DNA of 45,239 bases, from NCBI GenBank assembly GCA_025463965.1, contig JAODBN010000361.1:1-45239 (forward strand). The letters run 5' to 3'. The stretch comes from Acidimicrobiaceae bacterium. Lineage in GTDB: Bacteria > Actinomycetota > Acidimicrobiia > Acidimicrobiales > Bog-793. Below the pieces are notes generated by a model. The model made no database searches, was not told where the DNA came from, and saw nothing but the letters and a program-made list of their open reading frames with translations. Below are positions 11,464-34,592 of the stretch, one piece after another (position 1 is the stretch's first letter; each line of letters begins with the position of its first letter). A program made the position numbers and the translations under genes.

Positions 11464-11485
11464 CAACTTTTCTCGCCCGCGTGGG

Positions 11486-14091: not shown

Positions 14092-15771
14092 GTGGACGAA
14101 TCGTCTGATCGCCTCGACGAGGTGGTCGAGGAGTATGCCGCCAACCGCATCACGCGACGAGAGGCGCTGAAGCGAGCTGGGGTTCTTGGCCTCGGTGCTG
14201 CAACGCTCGGTCCGCTACTCGCCAGGGTGCTGCCGTCTTCTGTGGCAGCCGCGTCGGAGGCTCCAGGCAACTCGGGACAGGCCGCGCCAAAGCATGGTGG
14301 CACGTTTCGGGAAGGCTATGACCGGGACTTCACCCCACCTAATCCAGTGGCGAATAACTGGGCCGATCCGGACTTCAACGCTCTGTTCGAAGCGCTCGTT
14401 ATCCGGAATCCCGAAGGCCAGATCGTCCCGATGCTTGCTGACCACTTCACGAGTGGTCCTCAGGGCTGGACCTTCCACCTCCGGAAGGGACTCAAGTTCC
14501 AGTCGGGGGCGCCGGTGACGCCCGCCGTCGTTGTAGAGGACTTCAACCTCTTTCGCAGTCCGAAGACTGGCCAAAACGGGCCGTTCTGGACGCCGATTTA
14601 TGACGTCGCGGCACAGGGCGAGAACGTGGTCTGCAAGACCCACCACGAGTTCCAGGCCTTCCAGGAGACGGTTGCCACCGAGTACTCGTACATCATGAAC
14701 CCGACGACCTGGAAGGCCCAGGGCTCGAAGTACGGGACGAAGCCGACCGACGGCACGGGGCCCTTCGTCCTCAGTAGCTACGTTCCCGGGCAGCACGTCA
14801 TCGCCAAGAGATGGAACGGCTACCCGGGATCTGTCGTCCCCTTCTTCCGTAACAAGGGCAAGGCGTACCTCGACGCGATCGAGTGGGTGCCCATCACGGA
14901 TGCGACTCAGCGCGCGCCGCAGATTCAGACCGGGCTCGTCGATGCAGTGAAGAACCCGCCGCCGCAGGATGTCGCCACCTTGAAGGCCGACAAGAACCTC
15001 GTGGTTCTCGAATTTCAAGAGCTGTCGAACTTCTTCTTGTCCGTGAACCTCGGCGACACTGCGCTCGGCTTCGACGACCTCCGGGTGCGCCAGGCCATCT
15101 CGCACGCGATCGACCGTGAGGCAATCGTGAAAGCGGTCTTCCTCGGCCACGCGGCCGCCACCTATGGGCCGGCGATGACCCGGTGGAAGTGGTACAACCC
15201 GGCGGTTGAGCAGTACAACAAGTTCGATACGGCGCTTGCGGGCCACCTGCTCGACGAGGCGGGATGGAAGATGGGCTCTAGCGGCGTGAGGACGAAGAAC
15301 GGCAAGCCCCTGGCATTCACGACGTTTAACCTGACCGACACCACCCAGAACCAGGTCATGGCGGCGATCGCGCAAATGCTTGCGAAGGTCGGCGTGCACA
15401 TGACCGTTAAAAGTCTGGCGTCTGCGGCCTTTTATCCTGAGCTCACGCAGAAGACGACGTCGTACGCGTTGAAGTGGCTTTGGTCGAGCCCCATCGATGT
15501 TGTCGCCCTCTTTGTCGCCTTCTATCAGCCCAAGACGGCCGCACTGAACTCCGTATACGACGCGTTCAATGCCTGGCAGACAGCAGGAAACTCGCCGCAG
15601 CTCAAGGCGGCGGCGCTGAGCTACCAGCAGGCCTTTGCGAAGCTTATCCCTTTGATCCCCATTTACACACAGAACACGATTTGGGTTCACAACAAAAACG
15701 TCGTCGGCTGGCAGCCGAACCAGGCGAACCTGTACCCATTTTACAATGATGTCTACCTGCAGAATGCGTGA
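14092..15771 (+). CDS. ABC transporter substrate-binding protein, family 5 (Dpp/Opp/Nik type), Tat-type signal
   Basis: The start was moved from the track's TTG 14023 to GTG 14092, which has an AAGGGGAG RBS. The twin-arginine motif ITRREALKRAGVLGLGAA is followed by an A-rich cleavage region. The family-5 core includes WTFHLRKGLKFQSGAPVT. Confidence 0.9.
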   Translation: MDESSDRLDEVVEEYAANRITRREALKRAGVLGLGAATLGPLLARVLPSSVAAASEAPGNSGQAAPKHGGTFREGYDRDFTPPNPVANNWADPDFNALFEALVIRNPEGQIVPMLADHFTSGPQGWTFHLRKGLKFQSGAPVTPAVVVEDFNLFRSPKTGQNGPFWTPIYDVAAQGENVVCKTHHEFQAFQETVATEYSYIMNPTTWKAQGSKYGTKPTDGTGPFVLSSYVPGQHVIAKRWNGYPGSVVPFFRNKGKAYLDAIEWVPITDATQRAPQIQTGLVDAVKNPPPQDVATLKADKNLVVLEFQELSNFFLSVNLGDTALGFDDLRVRQAISHAIDREAIVKAVFLGHAAATYGPAMTRWKWYNPAVEQYNKFDTALAGHLLDEAGWKMGSSGVRTKNGKPLAFTTFNLTDTTQNQVMAAIAQMLAKVGVHMTVKSLASAAFYPELTQKTTSYALKWLWSSPIDVVALFVAFYQPKTAALNSVYDAFNAWQTAGNSPQLKAAALSYQQAFAKLIPLIPIYTQNTIWVHNKNVVGWQPNQANLYPFYNDVYLQNA

Positions 15772-15833: not shown

Positions 15834-16766
15834 ATGAAGTTCGTTCTAACGCGCCTCTGTTACGCCGTGGTGATCATCGTCCTTGTCTCGATAGTCACCT
15901 TCTACAGCATGCATGCCTCACCCGGCAGCGTCGTGAGCAGTGTCTTCAACCTCGCGACCACGCCACACTCGGTGATCGTCGCGTACGAACGCCGTCACGG
16001 GCTTTTGGACCCGCTGCCGGTCCAGTACTGGCACTTCATGACTGGGCTGTTGAGCGGTAATTTCGGAACGTCGCTCGTTAGCAACTTGTCGGTGAAGACG
16101 ATCGTCGCGAACTCTGCCGGCTATACCGCACTGCTCGCCGGCTCCGCGTTCGTTCTCATCTTTGGCGTCGGCATTCCGATTGGCGTCCTCGCGGCGATCA
16201 AACGCGACTCGTGGTTCGACCGGGGGGTGCGCGCGTTCTCAAGCATTGTCCTTGCGATTCCAAACTTTGTACTCGGCATCATCCTCATCCTCGTCCTAGG
16301 CATTCACCTCCATGTGCTGCCCGTGGCTGGGGCCGGCTCTTTCTCGAACCTCGTCCTGCCGGCGATCGTGCTCGCCGCTGCAGAGTGGTCGCTCACGGTT
16401 CGCGTGACTCGTACGTCGTTTCTCGAGCAGCTCTCGGCTGACTTCACGAGAACGCTGCGCGCCCGGGGCGTCTCCGAGAGGCGGATCCAGTGGCGCCACG
16501 TGCTGCGCAACTCGATGGGCCCGATTATCTCGCTCGGGATAATCGAGGTGCGTAACCTGCTCGGTTACACGCTGATCGTTGAGGTGATCTTCCGCTGGCC
16601 GGGCCTCGGCACCGAGCTGGTGCAGTCCGTGCTCCAGCGGGACTACGACGTGACCGAGGTGCTCTCTCTGCTCCTGGCTGCGGCGGTCGTACTGGCGAGT
16701 GCGTTTGGCGATATCGCCCTCAGCCTGGTCGATCCTCGCGTGCGGGTGACCGGGGAGCATGGATGA
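15834..16766 (+). CDS. ABC transporter permease (DppB/OppB type)
   Basis: 310 aa, multi-pass hydrophobic, N-terminal MKFVLTRLCYAVVIIVLVSIVTF typical of the BPD_transp_1 OppB-like class. It sits in the operon between the SBP and the second permease. Confidence 0.9.
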   Translation: MKFVLTRLCYAVVIIVLVSIVTFYSMHASPGSVVSSVFNLATTPHSVIVAYERRHGLLDPLPVQYWHFMTGLLSGNFGTSLVSNLSVKTIVANSAGYTALLAGSAFVLIFGVGIPIGVLAAIKRDSWFDRGVRAFSSIVLAIPNFVLGIILILVLGIHLHVLPVAGAGSFSNLVLPAIVLAAAEWSLTVRVTRTSFLEQLSADFTRTLRARGVSERRIQWRHVLRNSMGPIISLGIIEVRNLLGYTLIVEVIFRWPGLGTELVQSVLQRDYDVTEVLSLLLAAAVVLASAFGDIALSLVDPRVRVTGEHG

Positions 16767-17668
16767 CGATGACCGCCCCGCAGATCGCTGCCCAGGGCAC
16801 CGGCCTGAAGGCGCGACCGAGCCGCTTTCTCATCTTGTTCCAGCCGCACAACCTTGTGTGGACGATCGGTGGAGTCATCATTATTGCGGCGGGGATCCTC
16901 GGGATCGTCCTGCAGCTCGTGCCTTCGTGGCGGCACCTCTACCTCACCCAGGATCTGACGGCGACATTTCAGGCGCCTCTCTCCACCGGCCACGTGCTCG
17001 GAACGGACAACCTCGGTCGAGATCTCCTCTGGCAGCTCATTGCCGGCCTTGGCATCTCGTTGATGATCGGGATTGGCGTGACTGTGCTCTCGCTTGTTCT
17101 CGGGCTCACGGTCGGGATCCTCGGCGCCTACTTCGGTCGTACGGCCGACGCGGTGAGCAACGTCATCGTCGACGTAACGTGGGCCTTCCCGGCGATCCTC
17201 CTTGCCGTCCTCCTCGCTGGCGCCATCGGCCCGAGCGTGACGACGGTCGTTCTCGCCCTCGCGCTGACGACCTGGCCTGGCTATGCCCGTATCGTCCGCG
17301 GCGAGGTGCTGTCCCTGCGCGAGCGGGACTTCGTGAACGCGGCTCGAGTGCTCGGCGTCCCGAAGCTCGTGATCAGCGTCCGGCACTTCGTCGTGAACCT
17401 TATGCCCATCACGATTGTGATCGCCGTGTACTACGTCGCGACGGCGATCATCGGTGAGGCGGGACTCTCGTTCCTCGGCCTCGGCGTGCAAGCGCCGATG
17501 CCGAGCCTGGGGCTCATGCTCTCGGTGGGCCAGCAGTACCTGAACGTCAGCTGGTGGCCCGTCGTTCTCTCCGGCGCGCTCTTGGCGCTCGTCGTGCTGT
17601 TCCTAAATGCGTTCGGGGACTTCCTACGGGGTCGCCTCGATCCCCACGGGCGGGTGCCGAGGCGATGA
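16763..17668 (+). CDS. ABC transporter permease (DppC/OppC type)
   Basis: 301 aa, hydrophobic, with HVLGTDNLGRDLLWQL typical of the OppC N-terminus. ATGA overlap with the upstream gene. Confidence 0.9.
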   Translation: MTMTAPQIAAQGTGLKARPSRFLILFQPHNLVWTIGGVIIIAAGILGIVLQLVPSWRHLYLTQDLTATFQAPLSTGHVLGTDNLGRDLLWQLIAGLGISLMIGIGVTVLSLVLGLTVGILGAYFGRTADAVSNVIVDVTWAFPAILLAVLLAGAIGPSVTTVVLALALTTWPGYARIVRGEVLSLRERDFVNAARVLGVPKLVISVRHFVVNLMPITIVIAVYYVATAIIGEAGLSFLGLGVQAPMPSLGLMLSVGQQYLNVSWWPVVLSGALLALVVLFLNAFGDFLRGRLDPHGRVPRR

Positions 17669-18690
17669 GGGGACCGGAACTCCTCGTGAAAGCGTCGGTG
17701 AGTCCGGCGGCGGTGCCCGCCAGCCGTCCTGCGCTCGCACTCCTCGACTTGTCCATCTCCCAGCGCCTGCGGCGGACGGAGAAGAGGCTCGTGACCCACG
17801 TCGATCTCGAGGTCGGGCAGGGTGAGATCGTCGGCCTCGTCGGCGAAAGTGGTTCGGGGAAGTCGCTAACGGCTCTTGCGTGCATGGGCCTCTTGCCTTC
17901 TGGCCTCGCGGTGACCGGCGGGGACGTGCACCTCGATGGCGCTTCGCTGCTCGGACTTGCGCCGAAGGCGTTCCGGGCGCTGCGCGGCAACGCGATCAGC
18001 ATGATCTTCCAAGACCCGCTCTCGAGTCTCGACCCGTGCGCCCGCATTGGCGCGCAGATAATCGAGACGATTCGCGCCCATAAAGACGTCAGCGCTTCCC
18101 AGGCGAAGCGGGATGCCATCGAGCTGCTAGACCGCGTCGGGATCCCGAGAGCGGCCCAACGCATGCGGGCGTATCCGCACGAGTTCTCGGGCGGAATGCG
18201 CCAGCGGGTCATGATCGCGGCGGCGCTCGTCCTCAAGCCACGCGTCCTGCTTGCGGATGAGCCGACAACGGCGCTGGACGTCACTACGCAGGCGGGCATC
18301 GTCGAGCTCGTGCGCGAACTCTGCCGTGAGCTTCAGATGAGCGTCGTCTGGATCTCCCACGACCTTGCGCTCGTCAGCGAGCTCGCCGATCGAGTGGCGG
18401 TGATGTACGCCGGAGAGATAGTCGAGGTCGCGGACTCCAAAGTTCTCTTCCGAGTGTCTCGTCATCCTTACACGAAGGGTCTTGTTGCCAGCGGGAGCAT
18501 CCGTCCCTACGGCGAGCGCTTCAGTTACATACCCGGCAGTATTGCCGAGCCGGGAACGTGGCCGACAGGGTGTCGATTTGCTCCTCGCTGCGAGCGCGTC
18601 CGCGAGGAGTGCGTCGGAGAGCATCCCGACTTTAGGAGTGGGACGACAACGGTCCGCTGCGTCAATCCCATCGAGTACGAGGCGGAATGA
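17665..18690 (+). CDS. ABC transporter ATP-binding protein (DppD/OppD type)
   Basis: The start was set at ATG 17665 (ATGA overlap); the track's extension from 17554 overlaps the permease. Motifs: Walker A GESGSGKS, signature FSGGMRQRV, Walker B LLADEPTTALD. The C-terminal oligopeptide-ATPase-type tail contains Cys residues. Confidence 0.9.
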   Translation: MRGPELLVKASVSPAAVPASRPALALLDLSISQRLRRTEKRLVTHVDLEVGQGEIVGLVGESGSGKSLTALACMGLLPSGLAVTGGDVHLDGASLLGLAPKAFRALRGNAISMIFQDPLSSLDPCARIGAQIIETIRAHKDVSASQAKRDAIELLDRVGIPRAAQRMRAYPHEFSGGMRQRVMIAAALVLKPRVLLADEPTTALDVTTQAGIVELVRELCRELQMSVVWISHDLALVSELADRVAVMYAGEIVEVADSKVLFRVSRHPYTKGLVASGSIRPYGERFSYIPGSIAEPGTWPTGCRFAPRCERVREECVGEHPDFRSGTTTVRCVNPIEYEAE

Positions 18691-19460
18691 CGGTGTCAAT
18701 CGTCCAGCTACTTGACGCGAGAAAGGTCTTCCGCGGACGGCGCGGCGCGCCGGATCACGTCGCTGTCGACGACGTCTCCTTCGAGATGAGCAGCGGTGAG
18801 ACGCTCGGCATTGTCGGAGAGAGCGGGAGCGGCAAGACGACCATCGCGCGGCTCGTCCTCTCACTGGCGCGCCCGACGTCCGGACACGTGTATGTGGGCG
18901 GCATCGACGTCGGCGCCGCCTCCGGCGCTGAGCGCAAGCGCCTACCGCGGATTGTCCAGGCGGTATTCCAGGATCCCTTCGCATCACTCGATCCACGGAT
19001 GACGATTGGCGCCAGCATCTGCCAAGGAGCAAAGCGTGCCTTCGGTGCGCAGGCGGCCCAAGCGGCGCTCGGTGATCTCCTCGACCATGTTGGACTGCCT
19101 CAGCGCTACCGTGACCTGTATCCGCACGAGCTCTCAGGCGGACAGCTCCAGCGCGTCGCGATCGCCCGCGCACTTGCGATGAAGCCGGATGTCCTCGTGG
19201 CCGACGAGCCAGTGAGCGCGCTCGATGTGTCGATGCAGGGACAGGTTCTCAATCTACTCATCGACCTTCGCCATGAGTTCTCCATCTCGTGCCTGTTCAT
19301 CTCGCACGACCTCGGGATCGTCCAGCAGTTCTGCGAGCGCGTGCTCGTGATGGAGAGCGGAAAGGTCGTCGAAGAGGGCGTACCCGGCGATATCTTCCGG
19401 TCGCCGTCGCATCCCTACACTCAGAGCCTCATCGAGGCCATCCCAAAGGTGCCCGCATGA
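18687..19460 (+). CDS. ABC transporter ATP-binding protein (DppF/OppF type)
   Basis: Walker A GESGSGKTT, signature LSGGQLQRVAIARAL, Walker B LVADEPVSALD. ATGA overlap. Confidence 0.9.
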   Translation: MTVSIVQLLDARKVFRGRRGAPDHVAVDDVSFEMSSGETLGIVGESGSGKTTIARLVLSLARPTSGHVYVGGIDVGAASGAERKRLPRIVQAVFQDPFASLDPRMTIGASICQGAKRAFGAQAAQAALGDLLDHVGLPQRYRDLYPHELSGGQLQRVAIARALAMKPDVLVADEPVSALDVSMQGQVLNLLIDLRHEFSISCLFISHDLGIVQQFCERVLVMESGKVVEEGVPGDIFRSPSHPYTQSLIEAIPKVPA

Positions 19461-22927: not shown

Positions 22928-23667
22928 AGATCAACGACCACCTCTATCTTGTTGGCGGCGGCGACTATGGGTTCAACCTGTCGGGCCGGCTCGACTGCAA
23001 CAGCTACGTCCTGGACACGGGCGAAGGACTGTGGATGATCGATGCGGGCTTCGACGGCGGCGAGCAGGTCGTGAAGAACATCCGCGCCGAAGGTCTCGAG
23101 CCGCGCGCGATCACGCGGTTGTTCATCACGCACTACCACGCTGACCACGCGGGGGCTCTTTCCTACATGCGCAAGGCACTCTCGCCTGAGCTCCAGATCG
23201 CGATCTCCCGCGAGGTCGCCGAGCAAGTACGCGCCGGGGACGAGGAGGACAACGGCCTACGGTGGGCGAAGAGCTTCGGCTTCTACCCCTCGGAGTTTGC
23301 CCTTGAGCCTTGCGAGGTCGATGTCGAGCTGACCCACGGCCAGCGCTTTCAGGCAGGGCGTTTCACGCTTGAGGCGATTGACACCCCCGGGCACTGCCGG
23401 GGGCACATCTGCTTCCACCTGACCGGGGGCTCGGGCGGCTACTTGTTCAGCGGGGACCACGTCTTCTGGGGCGGCAAGATCATCCTTCAGAACGTGGGCG
23501 ACTCGAGCGTGCAGGAGTACGCGGCGTCGATGAACGCGCTCCTCGACTACGACTACGCAGCGCTTATGCCCGGCCACCTCGCCTTCTCTATGGTAAACGG
23601 CAAGCGACACGTCGAGCTGGCCGCTAACCAGTTCAACAAGATCGGCCTGCCTGCGAATCTGCTTTGA
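22924..23667 (+). CDS. MBL-fold metallo-hydrolase
   Basis: HxHxDH motif THYHADHAG, then DTPGHCRGH and a later His (PGH). ATGA overlap. Confidence 0.8.
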   Translation: MKINDHLYLVGGGDYGFNLSGRLDCNSYVLDTGEGLWMIDAGFDGGEQVVKNIRAEGLEPRAITRLFITHYHADHAGALSYMRKALSPELQIAISREVAEQVRAGDEEDNGLRWAKSFGFYPSEFALEPCEVDVELTHGQRFQAGRFTLEAIDTPGHCRGHICFHLTGGSGGYLFSGDHVFWGGKIILQNVGDSSVQEYAASMNALLDYDYAALMPGHLAFSMVNGKRHVELAANQFNKIGLPANLL

Positions 23668-24944
23668 CCGATCTCGCGCAAATGGCAGACGCCTCGGGGG
23701 TCGACCTGCATCGTCCGGCGGAGTCGCGCCGCTTCGCGGTGACGGCGGGCGCGACTTTCCTTCCCGCCCGCGGTTTCGTCGCCGGTGTGACGGTACTGGT
23801 CGAGAACGGCGTGATCATCGAGGTCCGCAATCGTCCCGTTCCACCTGCTGAAGCGATCGTGCACGTTGAGCGACGGGATGCCACGCTGCTCCCCGGGCTC
23901 ATCGACAGCCATGTGCATCTCTCCTTCAGTGGCGGATCGCGCGTGATCGAGGACGTCACCGAGGCGAGCGACGTCACGCTCGGGCTCGTCGCGCTGCAGC
24001 ATGCGCAGATCGCCCTGGCGTCCGGTGCGACGACCCTGGCCGACTGCGGGGCTCGCTGCGAGGTGGTGCTTCAGGTGCGCGACGCGGTGGCGAGTGGCCG
24101 TGTCGCCGGTCCGCGCATCCTCGCGAGTGGCGCACCCATTACGACGACGGCGGGGCACTGTTCATGGCTCGGCGGCTGCGCGGACTCCATCGACGATGTC
24201 ATCCGCGAGGCGCGCCGCCAGGTAGGGGCCGGTGCCGATTTCTTGAAAGTGATGCTGACCGGTGGCAACCTCACGCCGGGCAGCAATCCCGGGATGCTGC
24301 AGTATCCGGCGGATGTGCTTTTTGCGCTCGCCAACGAGGCACGTCGTCTCGGGCGCCCCCTCGTCGTCCACGCCCACTCAGAGGAAGCCGTCGCCATCGC
24401 CGGGCGCGCCGGTGCGACGATCGTCGCCCACGGTACGTGCGCTTCGAGCGAGGGCATCGGGCTCTCGCCTACGACCGTGGAGGCGCTCCTTGCCGGGGGC
24501 ACGGTGATCGATCCGACGATCACCGTCGGCATGCCCGGCATCCGCGACCACGCACAGGTGATGCACGATCGCGCTCGGATCCGAAAGGAGATGCTGCCGG
24601 TGTTCACCGCCCTTGCCCGCCAAGGCGTGCCGCTGCTTGCTGGCACCGATGCGGGTGTGACCAATGTGCCGCACGGCAGCACGGCACGTGCTGTGCTGGC
24701 CCTCGAGCGTGAGGTCGGCCTCCAACGCGAGGAGGCGATCTTTTCGGCGACGGCCGCTCCGGCGCGCGTCTTCGGCCTCGAGCACCGCACAGGAGCGATC
24801 GTTCCAGGACTCGCCGCAGACCTCCTTCTCGTCGAGGGTGACCTCCGCACCGACGCGACTGCGATCCTCCGCCCGGCACAGGTCTGGTCGCAGGGCGTGC
24901 CCATCGCAGCAAGCGCTTGGCGTCGGGAGGCCGAGGTTGTATAG
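23664..24944 (+). CDS. Amidohydrolase-superfamily metal-dependent hydrolase (Amidohydro_1 type)
   Basis: LPGLIDSHVHL (HxH), KVMLTGG, VVHAHSEEA and the GTDAG region. The start is either TTG 23664 (overlapping the upstream stop) or ATG 23682. Confidence 0.8.
   Translation: MTDLAQMADASGVDLHRPAESRRFAVTAGATFLPARGFVAGVTVLVENGVIIEVRNRPVPPAEAIVHVERRDATLLPGLIDSHVHLSFSGGSRVIEDVTEASDVTLGLVALQHAQIALASGATTLADCGARCEVVLQVRDAVASGRVAGPRILASGAPITTTAGHCSWLGGCADSIDDVIREARRQVGAGADFLKVMLTGGNLTPGSNPGMLQYPADVLFALANEARRLGRPLVVHAHSEEAVAIAGRAGATIVAHGTCASSEGIGLSPTTVEALLAGGTVIDPTITVGMPGIRDHAQVMHDRARIRKEMLPVFTALARQGVPLLAGTDAGVTNVPHGSTARAVLALEREVGLQREEAIFSATAAPARVFGLEHRTGAIVPGLAADLLLVEGDLRTDATAILRPAQVWSQGVPIAASAWRREAEVV
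24910..24919. promoter_or_regulatory. Second copy of the LacI-type palindrome CAAGCGCTTG, ahead of the aldolase sub-operon
   Basis: An exact 10-mer in the last 35 nt of the amidohydrolase gene, overlapping a TTGGCG - 17 nt - TATAGG arrangement (24917-24945; the -10 fit is weak). A 119-nt gap follows it, one of the few breaks in an otherwise tightly coupled + strand gene run. Confidence 0.45.
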
Positions 24945-25921: not shown

Positions 25922-26733
25922 GGACTTTGATCTTCGACTGTGACGGTGTTCTCTCCGACACCGAGCGCGACGGTCACCGCCGCGCCTTCAATCAGGCGTT
26001 TGCGGAGTTCGGGCTGCCGGTGTGCTGGAGTGAGGCAGAGTACGCGGAGAAACTTTCGATCGGCGGTGGAAAGGAGCGGATGGCGACTCTGCTCACCCCC
26101 GAACTCGTCGCGGCGATGGGTCTACCGAGAGACCCCGAAGCTCAGTCGAGCGTGCTGCAGACATGGCATCGGCGAAAGTCGGAGATCTACCGCGAGCTTG
26201 TTGCGCGCGGGGGCCTCCCACCCCGCCCTGGTGTCGCCCGCGTTGCCCGCGAAGCACTCGATGCAGGCTGGCAACTGGCTGTTGCTTCCACGTCCGCGGA
26301 GGAGTCCGTTCGGGCGATCCTCGAGCACGCGATCGGCGTGCGCGATGCGGGGCGCTTCTCAGCGGTACTCGCTGGGGACATTGTCGAGCGGAAGAAACCT
26401 GCGCCTGACATCTATGAATTGGTTGTCGGGCGCCTCGGAGCGGATCGGCAGACAACTGTCGTCGTTGAAGACTCACGCAACGGCCTGCTCGCGGCAGTTG
26501 GAGCTGGGTTGCCGTGCGTCATCACTGTCAGCAACTACACGCGGGACGAATCGTTCAAAGAGGCAGCTTTCGTGGTGAGCTCTCTCGGTGATCCCGGGGG
26601 GGAGGCGACGCACGTATACGAGAACCGAAGCCAGGCCTCTCCTGTTGGCTGGGTGACCTTGCGCGATCTGGAAATGTGCATGCTCGGAATGACGGACGGC
26701 GCTCACTCTGCCGGTGCGCAGGGGGACGGATGA
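25918..26733 (+). CDS. HAD-IA family hydrolase (CbbY-like phosphatase)
   Basis: Motif I LIFDCDGVLSDTE, motif II VASTS, motif III ERKKPAPDIY, motif IV VVVEDSRNG. GTGA overlap. Confidence 0.85.
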   Translation: MRTLIFDCDGVLSDTERDGHRRAFNQAFAEFGLPVCWSEAEYAEKLSIGGGKERMATLLTPELVAAMGLPRDPEAQSSVLQTWHRRKSEIYRELVARGGLPPRPGVARVAREALDAGWQLAVASTSAEESVRAILEHAIGVRDAGRFSAVLAGDIVERKKPAPDIYELVVGRLGADRQTTVVVEDSRNGLLAAVGAGLPCVITVSNYTRDESFKEAAFVVSSLGDPGGEATHVYENRSQASPVGWVTLRDLEMCMLGMTDGAHSAGAQGDG

Positions 26734-27395
26734 CGGCAACGCTCGGCGACGTCGCATTTGTCATTGGTTCGATGGCCCGCACCGCTGTCGACAACGAGGG
26801 CTTGTTCGGAGAGCTTGACGCGGTCGTTGGCGACGGCGACTTCGGCTACTCCATGGCTCGTGGCTTCGAGGCCGTCCTCGCTGGCTGGTCAGAGCTCGAC
26901 CGCGCGAGCATCGGTGGGTTCTTGAAGGGGGTCGCAACGACGGTGATGGGACGGATGGGCGGGACCTCTGGACCGATCTGGGGTACGGCGTTGCTGCGTG
27001 CCGGAACCGTCGCCGGCAACGAGTCGGAGCTGGAATGTGCGGAGGTGCTTGCCATGCTGTGGGCCGCAATCGAGGGAATCAGGCAACGCGGGAAGTCCGA
27101 TGTCGGGGACAAGACTCTTCTCGACGCTCTCGTTCCGGCGGTCAATGCGCTCGAGGGCGAGCTACTCAATGGTGGCGCTGCAGCCGATGCCCTAAGCAGA
27201 GCCGCGGTCGTCGCGTCCGAGGCCGCGGAGGCGACCCGCCCTATGGTGGCGAAGCGCGGGCGCGCCTCGTACGCCGGCGACCGGAGCGTCGGAACGCTCG
27301 ATCCGGGAGCGGCTGCCGTGGCCCGGATGTTCCAGGACATCGCGGCGAGCTGGTCAGAGCATGTGGGACGGAGCGATTCGGAGGCGCACACATGA
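26730..27395 (+). CDS. dhaL: Dihydroxyacetone kinase, ADP-binding subunit DhaL
   Basis: The start was set at ATG 26730 (ATGA overlap). DAVVGDGDFGYSM (GDGDHG-type motif with Phe for His), GGTSGPIW, GDKTLLDAL and RGRASY. Confidence 0.85.
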   Translation: MTATLGDVAFVIGSMARTAVDNEGLFGELDAVVGDGDFGYSMARGFEAVLAGWSELDRASIGGFLKGVATTVMGRMGGTSGPIWGTALLRAGTVAGNESELECAEVLAMLWAAIEGIRQRGKSDVGDKTLLDALVPAVNALEGELLNGGAAADALSRAAVVASEAAEATRPMVAKRGRASYAGDRSVGTLDPGAAAVARMFQDIAASWSEHVGRSDSEAHT

Positions 27396-28387
27396 AGAAG
27401 CTCATTAACGACCCGCAGGACTTTGTAGCGGAGATGCTAAAGGGAACCGCGCTCGCGAACCCGGGCTCCCTCCGGTACGTGCCGGAATTCAACCTCATCA
27501 TGCGCGTTGATGCTCCGCGTGAGGACAAGGTGTCGGTCATTCAAGGATCCGGATCTGGGCACGAGCCTGCGCACGTGATGTTCGTCGGGCGAGGGATGCT
27601 CGACGGCGCCTGCCCGGGCGACGTGTTCTCTGCTCCGCCGGTCGACTACGTCGTCGGAACGACCAAGATGCTGAACTCGCCGATGGGCGTGCTTTATCTC
27701 GTGAACAACTACACGGGCGATGGCATGGCGTTCGAGATGGCAGCGGAGATTGTCGAGGCCGAGGGCATCCGCGTAGCCACCGTCGTTATCGACGACGACG
27801 TGGCCGTGAAGGACTCGACCTATACGATCGGCCGTCGTGGCGTGGCAGGAAACTTCTTCGTCATCAAGGCTGTCGGGGCGGCGGCGGAACTCAGCGCGAG
27901 TCTCGACGATCTCGTTTTGCTCGGCAACCGGGTGAACTCTGTGACGCGAACGATGGGCATGGCACTTACCTCCTGCACGCCGCCCGCGAAAGGAAGCCCG
28001 CTCTTCGAGCTTGGCCAGAGTGAGATGGAGATGGGAGTCGGTATCCACGGCGAGCCGGGGCGGAGTCGGGAGCCGCTAGGGAGCGCAAACGAGATCATCG
28101 ATGCGCTGGTCGAAGCCGTTGTCGCAGATTTACCCTATCGGCGCGGCGATCAGGTCGCGCTGATGATCAACGGCCTCGGCGCCACCCCGGTCAGTGAGCT
28201 CTACCTCGCATATGGCCGGGCGCACGAGCAACTTGTGGCCCGGGGGATCGACGTCGCGCGTAGTTATGTCGGGGAGTACTGCACATCCCTCGACATGGCG
28301 GGGTGCTCGGTCACTCTCGTGCGACTGGATGACGGCCTCGTCGACTATCTGGCAGCACCCGCGGACGTCGCGGTTCGAATCTTCTAG
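27392..28387 (+). CDS. dhaK: Dihydroxyacetone kinase, substrate-binding subunit DhaK
   Basis: The start was set at ATG 27392 (ATGA overlap); the track's extension from 27035 overlaps dhaL. MKKLINDPQDFVAEMLKG, GSGSGHEPAH, NYTGD and EMGVGIHGEPG. Confidence 0.9.
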   Translation: MKKLINDPQDFVAEMLKGTALANPGSLRYVPEFNLIMRVDAPREDKVSVIQGSGSGHEPAHVMFVGRGMLDGACPGDVFSAPPVDYVVGTTKMLNSPMGVLYLVNNYTGDGMAFEMAAEIVEAEGIRVATVVIDDDVAVKDSTYTIGRRGVAGNFFVIKAVGAAAELSASLDDLVLLGNRVNSVTRTMGMALTSCTPPAKGSPLFELGQSEMEMGVGIHGEPGRSREPLGSANEIIDALVEAVVADLPYRRGDQVALMINGLGATPVSELYLAYGRAHEQLVARGIDVARSYVGEYCTSLDMAGCSVTLVRLDDGLVDYLAAPADVAVRIF

Positions 28388-28488
28388 GACTCGTTGGAGC
28401 ACGCGCGGGTTTGGGAGCAATGGTCATTACGGCGTGCTCGTCGCGGCGAACAGCCGTGCCTGCCGCACGGGAACACAAGGAGGGAACG

Positions 28489-29952
28489 ATGCGCGAGATC
28501 TTCGAGTACCGGTTCACGAAGCTCGACCCCGTTGGCGGGGACCACATCGACCCGCCCGGCGTTGCGATCTACGAGGGGCTCCTCAACAAGGGCCCGAGCG
28601 AACAGCCTCTGCCTGGGCTGGCGGTGGCGTGGTCGCCGAGTGAGGATGGCCTCGTCTGGCGTCTGCGGCTCCGTCCGGAAGCGCGGTTCCACTCGGGCGA
28701 TCCGTGCGACGCGCCGGCGGTCGTCGCCGCGCTCGAACGCTGTCGCTGGGGCGATGGCCGGACTCATCAGCTCTGGTACTGGGACCCGGTCGACACGGTC
28801 CGAGCGCTCGACGAGGGGACGATCGAGATCCGGCTGCACTATCCCTGGCTTCGACTCCCGACGCTGTTGTGGGGAACACACACTGCGATCGCCAATGACC
28901 GGCGTCGGGAAGCACTCGGCGCCCGCTACGGCATCGAGTTGGCAGATGGGACTGGGCCCTATCGTCTCGTTTCCTATGAGCCGGACGAGGTTGTGGGCGA
29001 ACTCGTCCACGGGGCGGGCGAGACGCGGCCGCGCGTCGTCAGCTGGATGTCCGAGAGCGATGACGACGCCCGGTGCGCGGCCCTAGGGCGCGACGACGTC
29101 GATGTTGTCCGAGCGGTGCGGCCGGAGTGGATCCAGCACGAGAGCGCCGAGCGCTGGCGCTACGTCGAGCAGGACGAGATCTCCCAGTTCTACCTAGCGC
29201 TCAGATTCGACGGAGCCTTCGGCTTTGACGACGTCGAGCTGCGGCGCGCCGTCGATGCCTTTGTAGACCGTCCTGCGCTCGTCGCGGCGGCGTTCGGCGG
29301 GCTCGGCAACGGCCGCCGCTCGCCAGTTCCGGTCGGGGACGTCTTCGCCTCGAACTTCGACCCCGCAACGGTACCGCCGCTGTCCATCGCCCAAGCGGAG
29401 GCGGTACTCGACGCCCATGGTCTGGTGCGGGGGCCAGACGGGGTGCGCATGAAGGACGGCGTTCCGCTGCGCCTGCCCTGCGTTACGCAGGACGCCCCGG
29501 CCTTTCGCCGGCTCGTCGGCGAGCTCGGCCGTCAGATCGCCGCGGCCGGCATCGTCCTCGAGTTCGAGTACTACACGCCGTTCGAAGACTTCTACCGGGC
29601 GTGCGCGAAGCGGCCGGCAGCCTTTGTGTCGAAGTGGCTTTGGCAGGACGCTATCGAGGCCGTCATGGGCTTCTCGCGGTCGTCGTGCACCGGAGACGCC
29701 GGGTGCAACTGGCAGGGCTCGATCGTGCCGGCCGTCGACGCCGCCTACGACCGGTTCCTCCAGGCGTCGACGCTTGAAGAGCTCGGCGAGCGGAGCCGCG
29801 AGGTCCAGGAGAGCTTCATGCGCGAACTGCCGTACATCCCACTCTGCTCGCCGGCGGAGACATACGCGATCTCGCCGCGAGTGCACGGGTTCGTCCCGGT
29901 GCCAGGGACGCTCTACCCTCTCTATGACAAGGTCCTGCTCGCCGATGAATGA
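28489..29952 (+). CDS. Family-5 solute-binding-protein homologue lacking any signal peptide (predicted cytoplasmic)
   Basis: ATG 28489 has a strong AAGGAGG RBS. The mature-type SBP_bac_5 core begins at residue about 5 (FTKLDPV...IYEGLLNK...PGLAVAWSPSEDGLVWRLRLRPEARFHSGDP). No hydrophobic or Tat N-terminus is present. The in-frame upstream extension (from 28411) is too short and uncharged to be a signal. Confidence 0.75.
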   Translation: MREIFEYRFTKLDPVGGDHIDPPGVAIYEGLLNKGPSEQPLPGLAVAWSPSEDGLVWRLRLRPEARFHSGDPCDAPAVVAALERCRWGDGRTHQLWYWDPVDTVRALDEGTIEIRLHYPWLRLPTLLWGTHTAIANDRRREALGARYGIELADGTGPYRLVSYEPDEVVGELVHGAGETRPRVVSWMSESDDDARCAALGRDDVDVVRAVRPEWIQHESAERWRYVEQDEISQFYLALRFDGAFGFDDVELRRAVDAFVDRPALVAAAFGGLGNGRRSPVPVGDVFASNFDPATVPPLSIAQAEAVLDAHGLVRGPDGVRMKDGVPLRLPCVTQDAPAFRRLVGELGRQIAAAGIVLEFEYYTPFEDFYRACAKRPAAFVSKWLWQDAIEAVMGFSRSSCTGDAGCNWQGSIVPAVDAAYDRFLQASTLEELGERSREVQESFMRELPYIPLCSPAETYAISPRVHGFVPVPGTLYPLYDKVLLADE

Positions 29953-30256
29953 GCCGACGGTGTATTGCGTCATCCTTTACCGCAAGGACGGTGTCTCCCG
30001 GGAGCAGTTCCTCGAGGCGTGGCTCGGCGAGCACCGCCGTCTCATTGGCGATCTCTCCGGCCTGACGGACGTGCGTCTGCTTCCCGTCGCCGAGCCCGCC
30101 GATGGCGGCCCCGATGGCGTGGGGCTGCTCCGTTTCGCCTCGGCAGCGCAGCTCACCGCCGCGCTCCAGTCCGAGCCCGCGCTCACGCTGCGACGCCACA
30201 CGGCGACTTTCTCCAAGTCGGACGCGGCGGTCCGGCTGCTGTTGACCGAGCCGTGA
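29945..30256 (+). CDS. EthD-domain protein (dimeric alpha/beta-barrel family)
   Basis: 103 aa. VYCVILYRKDGVSREQFLEAWLGEHRRLIGDLSGLTDVRLLPV fits the EthD pattern. The start overlaps the SBP-like stop by 8 nt, and the stop overlaps the next gene's GTG. Confidence 0.65.
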   Translation: MNEPTVYCVILYRKDGVSREQFLEAWLGEHRRLIGDLSGLTDVRLLPVAEPADGGPDGVGLLRFASAAQLTAALQSEPALTLRRHTATFSKSDAAVRLLLTEP

Positions 30257-32487
30257 CGACGCGGGAATTAGGGGCCGGTCCACCGATCGGCTACTTCGAC
30301 CGCTGGACGGCCCGACCTGGCGAGACGATAGAGCTGAAGGTGAGCAGCGAGATTGGCTTCGACGTGTCGATCATCCGCGTCTTACAGGCCGACAACAGCG
30401 CCTTGGCGCCCGGTCGGCGGGAGTACGTCGAGGAGTGGTGGCCAAGCTGTCGGTTTGGGGCGGCGGTGCAGAAGGTGGCGCCGGGCTCGTGCGTTCTCAC
30501 CGACCTGCTTCCGGCTCTGCAGACTGCCGAGAGATATGCGGTGGAGCTGATGTTCCGCCCGGGCGTGTTCGATGGCGGTGAGGCTCAAGTCGTCGCCGCT
30601 CTCCTCGCCGCCGACGGGCGCGCCAGTATGGAGCTCGCGCTCGACGGCGACGGCGGCCCCTACCTCGGGATCGGTTGCGGGCTGCGGCGACGGCGCGTCC
30701 GCGCCGGGCCGGCGACCGTTCTGCAAGTGGGCCGCTGGTACGAGGCGCGCCTCAGTGTCGACCTCGAGACTCGCCTGGCGCAGCTCGTGGTGGAGAGTGT
30801 GCTCGACGCGCCGAGCGGGCGCCAGCTCCTGGATGCAGAACTCGAGCTCGACGAGACCGACGTCGTGGCGCTGCGGGGGGATGCCCGCCCAGAACGCCTA
30901 ATGCTCGGTGCTGGCGGCGACTCCGACGTCGGCGAGCCCGGGGAGAACCCGCCGCGCGTCGGCCACTTTTCAGGGAAAGTAGAGGCGCCGACAGTCTCGG
31001 GGAGCGCTTCCTTGGCCGCGTTCGGCGGAGCGTTCAGCTACTCGTGGCAGCTCGGACCCGAGGTGCACAACGCGGCGGTCCTCGACGACCGGGGACAGGG
31101 CATCGTTGCCCATCTGCTCAATGCGCCGATGTCAGCAGTGACAGGTCACGCCTACGACGGGAGCGTCGTCTGTTACGCGCAGGCTCCGGACATGTATCGT
31201 GCCCTGGCACTCCATCGCGACGACCTTGAAGACGCCGGCTGGTCGACGACCGCCACGCTCACCTTGCCCGACGGACTGTCGTCCGGCGTGTATGCGGCCA
31301 AGTTGCAGAGCACGGCGGGATCTCGATACGTGCCCTTCTTCGTCGCCCCGCGGTCGGGCGGCGAGCGCCCGGCGATCGCCGTCGTGCTCCCTACCTTTAC
31401 CTATCTCGCGTACGCGAATGAGCACGTGCGCGAGTCGCTCCCCCACTTTGGGGAGACCCCGCAGCATCCGTCGCCTCAGGACCTCGAGATATCGGTGCAC
31501 CGCGACTTCGGGCTTTCATTGTACGACCACCACGATGACGGCACAGGGGTCTGCTTCTCGTCATGCCGTCGGCCGGTGCTCAACCTCGATCCGACCTACC
31601 GCTTCTGGCTGTTCGACGGACCGGTCCACCTCGGCGAGGACCTCTACCTGCTCGATTGGCTGGAGCGGGAGGGCTACGCCTTCGATGTCCTCACCGACCA
31701 TCTCTTGCACGGGGAGGGACAGCAAGCGCTCGCCGGGTACCGCGTCGTGCTGACGGGGAGTCACCCCGAGTACGTCAGCGAGCAGCTGATCGATGCCTTC
31801 GAAGCCCATGTCGAGGGCGGCGGCCGGCTGATGTACCTCGGTGGCAACGGGTTTTACTGGGTCACTTCCGTCCACCCCGAGCGGCCGCATCTGATCGAGG
31901 TGCGTCGGGGGAACGCCGGTGGCCGCGCCTGGGAGAGTGACCCGGGGGAGACCCACCATGCGACGACCGGGGAGCAAGGGGGCCTCTGGCGCCACCGCGG
32001 CCGGCCACCGAACCGGCTGCTCGGCGTCGGCTTCAGCGCGCAGGGTGCTGACGACGATGCGCCCGGATATCGACGGGTCTCGAGTGAGCCCCGCTGGAGC
32101 TTCGTTTTCGAGGGCCTGACCGACGACCAGGCGATCGGCGAATCGGGACTCCTTCTCGGCGGTGCGGCCGGCAACGAGGTGGATCGCGCCGACCCCCGCT
32201 GCGGCACACCGCCTGAGACGGTCGTGCTCGCGACCTCCACGGGCCATAGCGACGCATACCAGCTCGCCCACGAGGATCTCGCCTTCACCGCGCCGGACCA
32301 GGGTGGTACCAAGCAGCCGCTCGTCCGAGCGGATCTTACGATGACGCCCTACGTATCGGGTGGGTGCGTCTTTTCAGTGGGGGCGATCACCTGGCTCGGA
32401 GCGCTCGCCGCGTCCTCCTATGACAACGACGTCGCCCGGCTGACGGCGAACGTTCTCCGGCGCTTTCTCTCGCCCGCGCCTCTCTAA
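30253..32487 (+). CDS. N,N-dimethylformamidase beta (large) subunit-like protein, paralogue 1
   Basis: The start was set at GTG 30253 (GTGA overlap); the track's extension from 29965 overlaps the EthD gene. Blocks recalled from DmfA2-type proteins: IGYFDRWTARPGETIELKVS, PTFTYLAYANE, LTGSHPEY, GGRLMYLGGNGFYWV, HPERPHLIEVRR, LVRADLTM, ITWLGAL, NDVARLTANVLRRFL. Confidence 0.75.
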   Translation: MTTRELGAGPPIGYFDRWTARPGETIELKVSSEIGFDVSIIRVLQADNSALAPGRREYVEEWWPSCRFGAAVQKVAPGSCVLTDLLPALQTAERYAVELMFRPGVFDGGEAQVVAALLAADGRASMELALDGDGGPYLGIGCGLRRRRVRAGPATVLQVGRWYEARLSVDLETRLAQLVVESVLDAPSGRQLLDAELELDETDVVALRGDARPERLMLGAGGDSDVGEPGENPPRVGHFSGKVEAPTVSGSASLAAFGGAFSYSWQLGPEVHNAAVLDDRGQGIVAHLLNAPMSAVTGHAYDGSVVCYAQAPDMYRALALHRDDLEDAGWSTTATLTLPDGLSSGVYAAKLQSTAGSRYVPFFVAPRSGGERPAIAVVLPTFTYLAYANEHVRESLPHFGETPQHPSPQDLEISVHRDFGLSLYDHHDDGTGVCFSSCRRPVLNLDPTYRFWLFDGPVHLGEDLYLLDWLEREGYAFDVLTDHLLHGEGQQALAGYRVVLTGSHPEYVSEQLIDAFEAHVEGGGRLMYLGGNGFYWVTSVHPERPHLIEVRRGNAGGRAWESDPGETHHATTGEQGGLWRHRGRPPNRLLGVGFSAQGADDDAPGYRRVSSEPRWSFVFEGLTDDQAIGESGLLLGGAAGNEVDRADPRCGTPPETVVLATSTGHSDAYQLAHEDLAFTAPDQGGTKQPLVRADLTMTPYVSGGCVFSVGAITWLGALAASSYDNDVARLTANVLRRFLSPAPL

Positions 32488-34592
32488 GCGAGCATACGCT
32501 GGAGGACGTTCGTGCAGACTCGGGCGAGGTCGTTCTTCCCGTCCTCCACTGGGAGACATCCGCTCGCCGTGACCGACCCGAGGCTGAATACAATGCCGCC
32601 GGCCGGGGTGTGCCGGATCGTCATGTCAGCTCGCGTCTCGACGTCGGGGGCGCGCCCGGGCCCGCTCTCGAAGGTCCGAAAGAAAAAGCCTCCCGTCGGC
32701 ATCGCGCTCGCGAGCACAGTTGTTCCGACCGGCGCAAGGTCGGGGGTATAACGGTCGAATTCGAAGGCGACGGCGCCGCCCATGTTGAGTCCACATTCGC
32801 CGATTACGGCAGACGTGACGCCGTCAAACACCCACGCGAAGTCAGGGCCATACGAGGCGTCGGTGCGTTGGTAGCCGATGCCGGTATCCCAGCCGAAGCC
32901 CGCGAACCCGACCGAGACGATGGAGTCTGGCGGCCGCCCGCTCTGGGCCCACGTGCCGCCCCATTGCGGCTCGAAGACGTGAGCTACCTCGTCGCGCTCC
33001 GCGCTCCACGTCTGCGATCCACGCCAGCGCCGGACTTCCATGAGGTGTGGGCGCTCGTGATCGATGGAGGTCACCCAGTACAGGCCGTTGCCACCAAGAT
33101 AGATCAGGCTTCCTCCTGCATCGAGGTGGTGCTCGACGGCGTCGAGCATGGCGGCAGTCCAGTACTCGGGGTGCGCCGACAGCACGAGGACGCGTGCGCC
33201 CCTCAGTGCGCGGGCACCGTTCTCGTGAAGTACCCCGTCGGTGACGACGCCAAAGTCGATTCCACTCCGGTCGAGCCAGTAGTTGGCGTAGAGATCGGCC
33301 ATCAAAAGGTGCGTGGCCGTAGCCTCATCGCCCGGCGCTCCGGTCCCGGTGAAGGCGTCGACACTGTCGACCTCCAGGCGCGCGCCCGGCTCTAGGGTCG
33401 GCGAGGGCTTCAGCCGCGTCGTGACGTACACCGGAGAGCCATCGTTATGGAGCGCGTAGTGCGAGAGGCCGGGGTAGCGGTCCGCTTCCCGACCGAGGTT
33501 CGCGTACGCCTGCCAGGTGAATGTGGGCGCGAGCAGAAGAACAAGTGGGTTGACCTCTGGGGTCACGATGAAGGGGAGCTCGGCATCGCCATCGCTGCCA
33601 GAGACGTGCAGGCTGTAAAAGCCAGATCGCGCCGACTCCGGGACTGCGATCCGGTGGGTCCGCGGCCAGCGGCAGCTCTCGAGGTCGTCGCGATGCAGGT
33701 GCACGGTTGCGTAGGGCGCTGCCGTCATCGGGGGCTCGGTTGTGCCGTCGAGCGGCAATGGCCCCGACACGCCGAGTGCGGGCGCGTTAATGAGCGTGCC
33801 GTGGTGATTATTTGCCGACTGGTCCACGACTTTCCAGAGACTGTCGGCGCTCCCGAAGAGCCAGCTCCCGAGGATCGCGCGGCGCCTGCTCGTCCCCTCT
33901 ATGCCCCAGTTCATGAGCTCCATGAGACCAATCGCGTCAGGGATCTCAGCGAGGAGGAACGGAGCGTGGAGCTTGCCGTCAAACTGGCCGCGCGCCCATC
34001 CCTCGGACTCGGTGTGCCCGCCGAGCACGAGGGTCCCGTCCGATGTCGGCGGCGGCAGCGGCGCGATCGTGCGGACGAGCTCGTAGGGACCACCTGTGCG
34101 GCCGAGCTGTCCCCAGGCGAGCTTGACCAGTCCTGCCGACGCGTCGAGGCCGAGCCCCAGAAAGGCCCACTGGCGTTCGTACAGCTCGCGTGGGGACTCG
34201 AGAATCGTTTCCTCGCCGAGAACAAATCCAGGTCGCCCATTGCGGATCGCGAGCCGCGCCGCGCCGGACTTCGTCATCCAGGAGGCAACCACCGACGTCT
34301 CACGGAGCACAGTTGGCCAGATCCACGTCGCGAAGGTGAGCGGTCGGCCGTCCGTTGTGAGGGCGCCAGGAATTATCGCGCACGAGCCGGCTACAACAGT
34401 CTGTTCCTCGACGGGCTGCAGCTGCTCGAGGGGCCAGGAAGTCTCCTCAAATAGAGCACCGGGACCAAGATTTGGATCCGCGTGGACGAGACGGCGGACG
34501 TGCACATGCGGAGCGGCGTCTTGACCCGAAACGCGGGCGGCGAGGCTCGTCCCTGGCAGGACTTCGAAAGCATCAAGGTAGCCCCGCGCCAC
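32484..34592 (-). CDS. N,N-dimethylformamidase beta (large) subunit-like protein, paralogue 2
   Basis: 702 aa with a GTG start and no RBS (see the promoter feature). It has the same block order as paralogue 1: RGYLDAFEVLPGTSL, APTFTWQAYAN, LSAHPEYWT, GGSLIYLGGNGLYWV, HERPHLMEVRR, TRADMTI, NDLARVCTNVLQRML. Its stop codon overlaps that of paralogue 1. Confidence 0.75.
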   Translation of the reverse strand: MARGYLDAFEVLPGTSLAARVSGQDAAPHVHVRRLVHADPNLGPGALFEETSWPLEQLQPVEEQTVVAGSCAIIPGALTTDGRPLTFATWIWPTVLRETSVVASWMTKSGAARLAIRNGRPGFVLGEETILESPRELYERQWAFLGLGLDASAGLVKLAWGQLGRTGGPYELVRTIAPLPPPTSDGTLVLGGHTESEGWARGQFDGKLHAPFLLAEIPDAIGLMELMNWGIEGTSRRRAILGSWLFGSADSLWKVVDQSANNHHGTLINAPALGVSGPLPLDGTTEPPMTAAPYATVHLHRDDLESCRWPRTHRIAVPESARSGFYSLHVSGSDGDAELPFIVTPEVNPLVLLLAPTFTWQAYANLGREADRYPGLSHYALHNDGSPVYVTTRLKPSPTLEPGARLEVDSVDAFTGTGAPGDEATATHLLMADLYANYWLDRSGIDFGVVTDGVLHENGARALRGARVLVLSAHPEYWTAAMLDAVEHHLDAGGSLIYLGGNGLYWVTSIDHERPHLMEVRRWRGSQTWSAERDEVAHVFEPQWGGTWAQSGRPPDSIVSVGFAGFGWDTGIGYQRTDASYGPDFAWVFDGVTSAVIGECGLNMGGAVAFEFDRYTPDLAPVGTTVLASAMPTGGFFFRTFESGPGRAPDVETRADMTIRHTPAGGIVFSLGSVTASGCLPVEDGKNDLARVCTNVLQRMLA

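Follow-up and report, generated by a model that had tools for sequence, protein, structure and literature searches.

A leaderless and probably cytoplasmic paralogue of a Tat-exported family-5 solute-binding protein in a putative catabolic operon of an Acidimicrobiaceae bacterium

The stretch of DNA considered here, called the window throughout, is 45,239 nucleotides long and covers positions 1 to 45,239 of contig JAODBN010000361.1 (assembly GCA_025463965.1) of an Acidimicrobiaceae bacterium. It carries one long, tightly packed operon on the plus strand, in which a family-5 solute-binding protein (SBP; Pfam SBP_bac_5), here named S, is followed by two permeases, two ATPases, an alpha/beta-hydrolase-like protein, E1 alpha, E1 beta, a short-chain dehydrogenase (SDR), a metallo-beta-lactamase (MBL) fold hydrolase, an amidohydrolase, a class-II aldolase, a HAD phosphatase, DhaL, DhaK, a second family-5 binding protein, here named T, an EthD-like protein and a DMFA2_C protein; on the 3' side a convergent DMFA2_C gene and then a LacI regulator are found (Table 1). 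The gene under study is T. It is highly probable that T is a cytoplasmic paralogue of S, the operon's own binding protein exported by twin-arginine translocation (Tat), and that its lineage lost the leader once while keeping the bilobed fold and its cleft.

Table 1. Features of the operon and of its surroundings in the window (positions count from the first letter of the window).
Feature	Position	Strand	Remarks
Tat-exported family-5 binding protein S	14092..15771	+	Pfam SBP_bac_5, 227 bits; twin-arginine leader; same operon as T
Dpp/Opp-type ATP-binding cassette (ABC) importer	15834..19460	+	permeases 15834-16766 and 16763-17668; ATPases ~17665-18690 and 18687-19460; Pfam BPD_transp_1, ABC_tran, oligo_HPY
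Alpha/beta-hydrolase-like open reading frame (ORF), ~220 aa	~19457-20119	+	no Pfam/NCBIfam match; kept behind the ATPase genes in type-A loci
Thiamine diphosphate-dependent E1 alpha and E1 beta	~20116-21078 and 21075-22073	+	variable accessory genes, present in type-A loci, as is the alpha/beta-hydrolase-like ORF
Short-chain dehydrogenase (SDR)	22073-22927	+	Pfam
MBL-fold hydrolase	22924-23667	+	Pfam and HYHADH motif
Amidohydrolase, Xaa-Pro-dipeptidase-like	23664..24944	+	Pfam Amidohydro_1; NCBIfam XaaProDiPepCaul 3e-54, below cut-off
Class-II aldolase, HAD phosphatase, DhaL, DhaK block	24917-28387	+	between amidohydrolase and T
dhaK-T spacer, 101 nt	28388..28488	+	holds a non-conserved in-frame extension (TTG 28411, ATG 28420)
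Shine-Dalgarno AAGGAGG	28477..28483	+	read directly; 5-nt spacer to the ATG of T
Leaderless SBP_bac_5 paralogue T	28489..29952	+	487 aa; ATG 28489, TGA 29950-29952; subject of study
EthD-like small protein, 103 aa (ATGAATGA)	29945..30256	+	8-nt overlap with the end of T; Pfam EthD 20 bits, slightly under the cut-off of 22; NCBIfam TIGR02118 1.4e-3
Two convergent N,N-dimethylformamidase-beta-like (DMFA2_C) genes	~30253-32487 and 32484-34592	+ and -	Pfam; 3' ends overlap by 4 nt
LacI-type regulator	34678-35748	+	Pfam

The preliminary description of this locus, made from the letters of the sequence, had taken the AAGGAGG motif to fix the start of T at 28489. The motif is indeed present and supports that start, but since the window holds 10 copies of it against 4.1 expected, it cannot fix the start alone; this is done by the comparison of homologues. 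A set of 120 relatives of T was retrieved (43-72% identity, nearly all 470-510 aa, query coverage 98-100%), and the N-termini of 114 near-full-length homologues nearly all start 0-30 residues before the motif M-x-E-[IV]-F-E-Y-x-F-[TS]-x-[LV]-DP-x(3-5)-H-[IV]-DPP, the preceding residues being non-hydrophobic and free of any hydrophobic stretch. In the orthologous loci the in-frame DNA 5' of T is not conserved and often contains stop codons 2-30 codons upstream. As judged from these homologous sequences, the start at ATG 28489 is fixed. The codon-position GC content of the gene (GC1/2/3 = 0.73/0.49/0.83) is typical of a coding region in a window with 66% GC. As a separate observation, one homologous locus (L016) has, directly before the start of its T homologue and just upstream of position 10001, an in-frame stretch that would encode a (PGEHG)x5 peptide repeat.

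The operon has only two gaps of any size, and one of them is the spacer between dhaK and T; a consensus scan of this spacer found no promoter-like or terminator-like sites. The longest in-frame extension of T within it begins at the TTG and reads MGAMVITACSSRR..., where the tetrapeptide ITAC is a formal match to a lipobox. Only five uncharged residues precede the cysteine, in agreement with the preliminary description, which had considered the extension too short and uncharged for a lipoprotein signal, and ITAC is absent in the closest orthologue of T (L003). By its sequence, the extension is therefore judged unable to supply a signal peptide. The search for a Sec, Tat or lipoprotein signal gave no hydrophobic or twin-arginine N-terminus in T, in its longest extension or in the more than 110 homologues, the absence being judged from sequence, hydropathy and comparative data. 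Since the maximum of the 19-residue Kyte-Doolittle hydropathy over the whole protein is only 1.19, T contains no segment resembling a transmembrane helix. The earlier claim that T lacks an export signal is thus borne out by the hydropathy, by the leaderless homologues and by the upstream stops of the orthologues. T contains 8 cysteines, versus 1 in its exported paralogue S.

That the mature core of the binding protein begins within the first few residues of T, as had also been proposed, is confirmed by the alignment of T residues 1-486 to S residues 72-558 without large gaps (26% identity, E 8e-46), which means that the folded core starts at residue 1 of T. S is by far the best match of T; the best SBP in the PDB reaches E 5e-18 by sequence. 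The twin-arginine signal that had been read in S is clear: the leader (..NRITRREALKRAGVLGLGAA..) is conserved among S orthologues. When 1.84 billion representative proteins were searched with a profile, about 10 clusters at 50% identity match from residue 1-16 with 436-725 bits and represent the T family, while the next-best matches (286-381 bits) are all 547-593 aa long, match from residue 60-92 and carry Tat leaders of 60-90 aa. These exported sisters share an unusually long conserved leader with the n-region L-x-[ED]-x-Y...[IVL]-[STDN]-RR-x-F-[LFM] (positions 14092-14300 of the window; S orthologues of loci L010-L063; database proteins P0131-P0152); some S-type leaders also have a lipobox (LLAACGG or LAACSS), and a low-complexity linker then leads to the fold.

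In a bootstrapped neighbour-joining tree, T is monophyletic in 100 of 100 replicates, and so are T and S together against other family-5 binding proteins. For S alone, monophyly is recovered in just 1 replicate of the 100, so that S is paraphyletic and T is placed inside the exported S family. The simplest history, as far as can be read from these sequences, would be a single loss of a leader of about 70 residues (twin-arginine signal plus linker) in an ancestor of the S family. The two proteins still share the motifs GG-T-[LF]-RE-G-[YF]-D, KWLW and LYP-x-Y, and in 25 loci where they are paired they are equally diverged, with a mean pairwise identity of 0.49 for T and 0.51 for S.

SBP_bac_5 is the only Pfam match of T (132.3 bits against a cut-off of 32.4, residues 40-384). 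The AlphaFold2 (AF2) model, computed from a family alignment of 50 sequences, has a pLDDT of 93.6 and a pTM of 0.92, and predicts with confidence a complete three-domain bilobed cluster-C fold in which the cleft between the lobes is kept. A Foldseek search with the model gave TM scores of 0.82-0.85 to the closed, liganded forms of AapF, GbpA, AppA, DppA, SatA and AgaA and lower ones (0.63-0.75) to open forms of SBPs, with E values of about 1e-32 to 1e-36 to solved cluster-C SBPs, although identity to the solved structures is only 15-22%. By homology and predicted fold, T belongs to the SBP_bac_5 superfamily. All NCBIfam equivalogs are far below their cut-offs for T (bits/cut-off: Opp5A_nikA 66.5/600, GsiB 63.7/594, nikA 60.3/393, CntA 38.8/800, SgrR 20.3/476). 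Across three phyla the T family has 41 invariant columns. Lacking an export signal and not being the receptor of the transporter, T falls outside the functional class of extracytoplasmic ABC receptors.

For the ligand cleft, the sequence of E. coli NikA was checked against PDB entry 1zlq (residues 91-502 matched 100%, and the N-terminal numbering was consistent), and it was aligned to the T family profile by hhalign with a probability of 99.5. In this alignment W96 of T falls on W100 of NikA, T130/H131 on R137/P138 and W385 on W398; position 93, which is Arg in the family consensus and His in the T of the window, falls on R97, while D387 and N407 are within two residues of A400/Y402 and H416. 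We take these NikA residues (W100, R97, R137/P138, W398, A400/Y402 and H416) to line the NikA ligand pocket.

When 51 T and 27 S sequences were compared in one alignment, D21, P22, R86, W98, N136, D153, R195, the KWLW motif and LYP-x-Y were found to be common to both (numbering of T). At and near the positions that map to the pocket, the two groups differ, namely at position 19 (His in T, Trp in 100% of S), at position 94 (Gln in T, Asn in S), at position 97 (Tyr in T, Phe in S), at positions 130-131 (Thr-His in T, Glu-Tyr in S, the Glu in 100%) and at position 387 (Asp in T, Ser in S), while positions 99, 382, 407 and 417 are invariant Asp, Lys, Asn and Asp in T only and variable in S. Across the 25 paired loci, three His and two Cys are conserved in T and none of either in S. 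This pattern suggests that the cleft of T is maintained under selection with a chemistry unlike that of the receptor and richer in His and Asp.

The surroundings of T were compared in 29 loci that extend 7 kb or more to either side of the gene, counting partners within 7 kb. Neighbouring genes of at least 90 aa were called by a crude GC3-weighted ORF caller, and since it misses some genes, the counts are lower bounds. SDR, MBL-fold hydrolase and Dpp-type ABC genes were each present in 24 of the 29 loci, a regulator of the LacI or GntR type in 21 (directly adjacent in several), an alpha/beta-hydrolase-like gene in 19, EthD or a PNPOx-like gene in 18, an amidase (Amidohydro_1, M20 or DMFA2_C) in 17 and E1 alpha/beta in 13. 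The SDR and the MBL-fold hydrolase are the most constant partners of T, whose tie to intracellular enzymes is steadier than that to any single type of regulator. In five of the loci T stands without a Dpp-type transporter, or S, within this distance. An obligate linkage of T as the only receptor of the transporter was not found, the importer in the window having its own Tat-exported receptor S. Gene order varies by lineage, e.g., SDR-MBL-amidase-T, MBL-PNPOx-T-SDR-alpha/beta-hydrolase, or T-GntR...fumarylacetoacetase-SDR-MBL-M20-alpha/beta-hydrolase-S, and some loci also include an aminotransferase, a 2-hydroxyacid dehydrogenase, a fumarylacetoacetase-family hydrolase or a protein of the enolase superfamily (MR_MLE). 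In a Limnocylindria metagenome-assembled genome (MAG; locus L053, ~8500-13000) T is located directly between S and the permease genes, the usual position of a second receptor, and it is still leaderless, with an in-frame stop about 29 codons upstream. In the database protein P0077, T and EthD are fused in frame.

Taken together, the neighbouring genes point to an amide- or peptide-like substrate, possibly sugar-conjugated, and suggest at most that the substrate of the pathway is amide-containing and possibly sugar- or amino-acid-derived. N-acyl-homoserine lactones, diketopiperazines, beta-lactams, mannityl-opine/Amadori compounds and metallophores were considered as substrates, and none of them was supported by the neighbours. 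The likeness of the SDR to glucose or 2,3-butanediol dehydrogenase is generic only, and the MBL-fold hydrolase is closest to B3-like or HARLDQ-type proteins, below every cut-off. The ORF after the ATPase genes has alpha/beta-hydrolase-like motifs (LLFLHDVG.. and LDLAGHGLS) with a Glu at the position of the nucleophile elbow (VVAEGAA). In the closest orthologous loci (L001-L006) T directly follows the amidohydrolase, for which reason the block from the aldolase to DhaK is regarded as an insertion specific to the lineage of the window; the block sits elsewhere in L014, L016 and L059. The convergent pair of DMFA2_C genes, with the LacI-type regulator after it, has the same arrangement in L003 and L007.

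A scan of one genome per GTDB species yielded 66 T loci, all of them in MAG records. They are found in Actinomycetota (Acidimicrobiaceae, which are closest to the window at 72%, Thermoleophilia, Gaiellales, Nocardioides/Marmoricola, Streptosporangiaceae and Nanopelagicales), in Chloroflexota (Thermomicrobiales, Sphaerobacteraceae and Chloroflexia) and in Alphaproteobacteria (Devosia, Nitratireductor and Rhizobiaceae). A tblastn search of PLSDB gave no match on plasmids at 1e-30, and therefore no link of T to opine/Ti plasmids is seen. On one contig (CAIXFH010000152.1, loci L010 and L033) two T paralogues, 52% and 40% identical to the T of the window, flank one transporter, and each has its own SDR and EthD gene; two T copies on different contigs are present in several other MAGs (L009/L031, L012/L046). 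Separately, one contig with a T cluster (L041, CALQEM020000100.1) is binned as 'Bifidobacterium breve', and it may be mis-binned because all other loci come from environmental MAGs of Actinomycetota, Chloroflexota or Alphaproteobacteria.

Since T is leaderless throughout its family, forms a monophyletic offshoot of a Tat-exported family, is rich in cysteine and occurs in loci without a Dpp-type transporter, it is very probably located in the cytoplasm and does not act as a transport receptor. This part of the preliminary description is well supported, but its list of possible roles (enzyme partner, substrate chaperone or sensor) leaves out the option that T is itself a catalyst. T would bind a small molecule other than the ligand of S, most simply an intermediate of the pathway. 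The role to which we lean, tentatively, is that of a direct participant in one chemical step, either as the catalyst itself or as a substrate-holding partner of the SDR, the MBL-fold hydrolase, the amidase or the EthD/PNPOx-like protein, because invariant His and Asp were gained in the cleft, because T is duplicated together with SDR and EthD genes, because a fusion of T with EthD exists, and because passive carriers are rare in catabolic operons. In such a scheme, the Dpp-type importer would take up an amide- or peptide-like compound, with T delivering nothing to the permease; the intracellular T would close its cleft on a ligand that is more probably a pathway intermediate than the imported compound itself; the cleft would be re-lined by the family-invariant His19, Asp99, Thr130-His131, Asp387 and Asn407; and T would then perform one chemical step or hold the intermediate for one of the enzymes named above. 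The stronger form of this idea would make T an enzyme or metal-dependent catalyst, the first one known to have arisen from the cluster-C (SBP_bac_5, peptide/nickel) fold, which acts on an intermediate of an amide/peptide-like catabolic pathway. It is raised by the re-lining of the ligand pocket with invariant His and Asp, and we consider it possible, if somewhat unlikely.

Several points weigh against a part of T in chemistry. We know of no enzyme with an origin in the SBP_bac_5 (cluster C) fold. The number of columns conserved at 90% or more in the 25 paired loci is 101 in T versus 108 in S, so there is no excess of constraint that would point to catalysis, and invariant polar residues in the pocket are also expected in a pure binder with a fixed ligand. 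The putative clustering of His19, His131, Asp99 and Asp387 derives from the NikA alignment and the pocket positions of NikA. There is no single partner gene beside which T always lies, and this makes an obligate complex less likely; the fusion with EthD is a single sequence that could be an artefact of assembly or a frameshift. In the full-text literature on cytoplasmic or leaderless SBP_bac_5 proteins, SBP-derived enzymes and the clavulanate protein OppA2, no paper on the T family was found; an apparent match, PMC13149774, contains only the phrase 'extra-cytoplasmic solute-binding protein'.

T could instead be a non-catalytic binder in the cytoplasm, which takes hold of the compound brought in by the importer, or of a labile intermediate, and either buffers it or passes it on to the enzymes of the pathway, as the 'substrate chaperone' of the preliminary description would do. 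The complete closed-type fold retained in T, its place as the closest relative of the cognate receptor S and the equal rate and similar numbers of conserved positions of the two proteins would all fit a binder, and all SBP_bac_5 proteins or domains characterised so far are, to our knowledge, binders. However, import driven by ATP requires no cytoplasmic sink, stand-alone carriers seldom occur in catabolic operons, and T is kept in loci without a nearby Dpp-type transporter. In addition, because the pocket of T differs from that of S at at least six conserved positions, T probably does not bind the imported compound. We regard a purely passive role as unlikely, though a serious contender.

A sensor is a further option, in which T, much like the SBP_bac_5 domain of SgrR/DsvR or the stand-alone amide sensor AmiC, would bind an inducer or intermediate and modulate either the adjacent LacI or GntR regulator or, by trans-inhibition, the ATPases of the importer. 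Cytoplasmic SBP_bac_5 sensor domains do exist in SgrR/DsvR (PMC13060122), and a regulator gene is found near T in most loci, in several of them directly adjacent. Such regulators are expected in any catabolic cluster, however, the LacI and GntR/FCD types have effector domains of their own, and the type of regulator switches between loci while T stays. T also lacks a DNA-binding domain, the SgrR model scoring only 20 bits on it against a cut-off of 476, and no ANTAR/AmiR-type partner was seen among the scanned neighbours in the window and the annotated loci, all of which makes a sensor quite improbable in our view.

Very improbable is the reading that T does leave the cell, whether by hitch-hiking on S through the Tat system or along some other route open to leaderless proteins, and works outside the cytoplasm as a second receptor. 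In favour of it, the Tat system can carry folded proteins, and also complexes, out of the cell; a twin-arginine leader is present in nearly all S orthologues; most loci contain both T and S; and the Limnocylindria locus has T between S and the permease genes. Against this stand the five loci that have T but neither S nor a transporter within 7 kb, the embedding of T among genes for cytoplasmic enzymes with an overlap into the start of the EthD-like gene, and the 8 cysteines and conserved His and Cys of T, unlike S; moreover, we know of no SBP heterodimers. Finally, the idea of an artefact (a start called wrongly, a pseudogene left by truncation or a receptor duplicate in decay), to which only the lipobox-like ITAC of the upstream extension would point, is effectively refuted by the intact ORF, the columns invariant across three phyla, the conserved N-terminus, the orthologues with upstream stops and the high-confidence fold.

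Among known systems, the S-type receptors (NikA/Opp5A-like) are the nearest to T, with the same fold and mature length and a place in the same operon; T differs from them in lacking the leader of 60-90 residues (conserved n-region, twin-arginine signal and linker), in having H19 for W, T130-H131 for E-Y and D387 for S in its pocket, in being rich in Cys and His, and in that it can occur without the transporter. The solved cluster-C SBPs, namely GsiB/YliB (1uqw) and NikA (1zlq) of E. coli, AapF of Pseudomonas (7kz8/7kz9), GbpA of H. parasuis (3m8u), SatA of H. ducreyi (5z99) and AgaA of A. tumefaciens (6hlx), share with T the bilobed fold (TM up to 0.85) and the motifs FHxG, GTGPY and W..D. They are all periplasmic or lipoprotein receptors, at 15-22% identity to T, and the ligand contacts R97, R137, Y402 and H416 of NikA are not conserved as such in T.

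SgrR/DsvR proteins, which consist of an N-terminal helix-turn-helix (HTH) domain plus an SBP_bac_5 domain at the C-terminus, resemble T in using this fold in the cytoplasm as a module that binds small molecules (PMC13060122). T, unlike these, stands alone without an HTH domain and lies among genes for enzymes, not beside a small RNA or a regulon. AmiC of Pseudomonas aeruginosa is a cytoplasmic, stand-alone homologue of binding proteins that senses amides and controls AmiR. It is similar to T as a leaderless protein encoded in an amide-catabolic operon, but it has a type-I fold (LivJ-like, Peripla_BP_6) and an ANTAR partner, while T has the SBP_bac_5 fold and no ANTAR neighbour was seen. Several enzymes, e.g., cyclohexadienyl dehydratase, are described as having evolved from SBPs (PMC7683729); T has in common with them the scaffold of a binding protein whose cleft was remodelled, which could open a way to catalysis. 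These derive from type-II SBPs that bind amino acids, whereas T is of cluster C and its catalysis would be hypothetical. According to a survey, about 1% of the automatically retrieved proteins of SBP Pfam families are predicted to be cytosolic (PMC9602780). It is already known that some proteins of these families are cytosolic with other jobs, and that enzymes have evolved from SBPs. The apparent novelty lies in a family of stand-alone cluster-C proteins without a leader, which spans three phyla, is nested in a family of Tat-exported receptors and is kept beside S in a catabolic module.

Every named member of the T family in the searched databases carries a label such as 'peptide/nickel transport system substrate-binding protein' or similar, which is almost certainly wrong in function, and T genes mislabelled in this way inflate the counts of transporters and hide a component of a pathway. 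The pair of T and S is a natural experiment, in which the leader was lost once within a family of Tat-exported receptors and the cleft was then re-lined, while both proteins were kept at equal rates, and the intracellular repurposing of a binding protein can be tested directly with two recombinant proteins from one operon. If T is indeed an enzyme, both ends of a transition from receptor to enzyme could be compared within that operon. T also marks a conserved catabolic module (importer, SDR, MBL-fold hydrolase, amidases, EthD/PNPOx, with or without E1 alpha/beta) in abundant uncultured lineages of soil and freshwater, and should the enzymatic role prove true, the catabolic pathway in which it takes part would be widespread in uncultured Actinomycetota and Chloroflexota.

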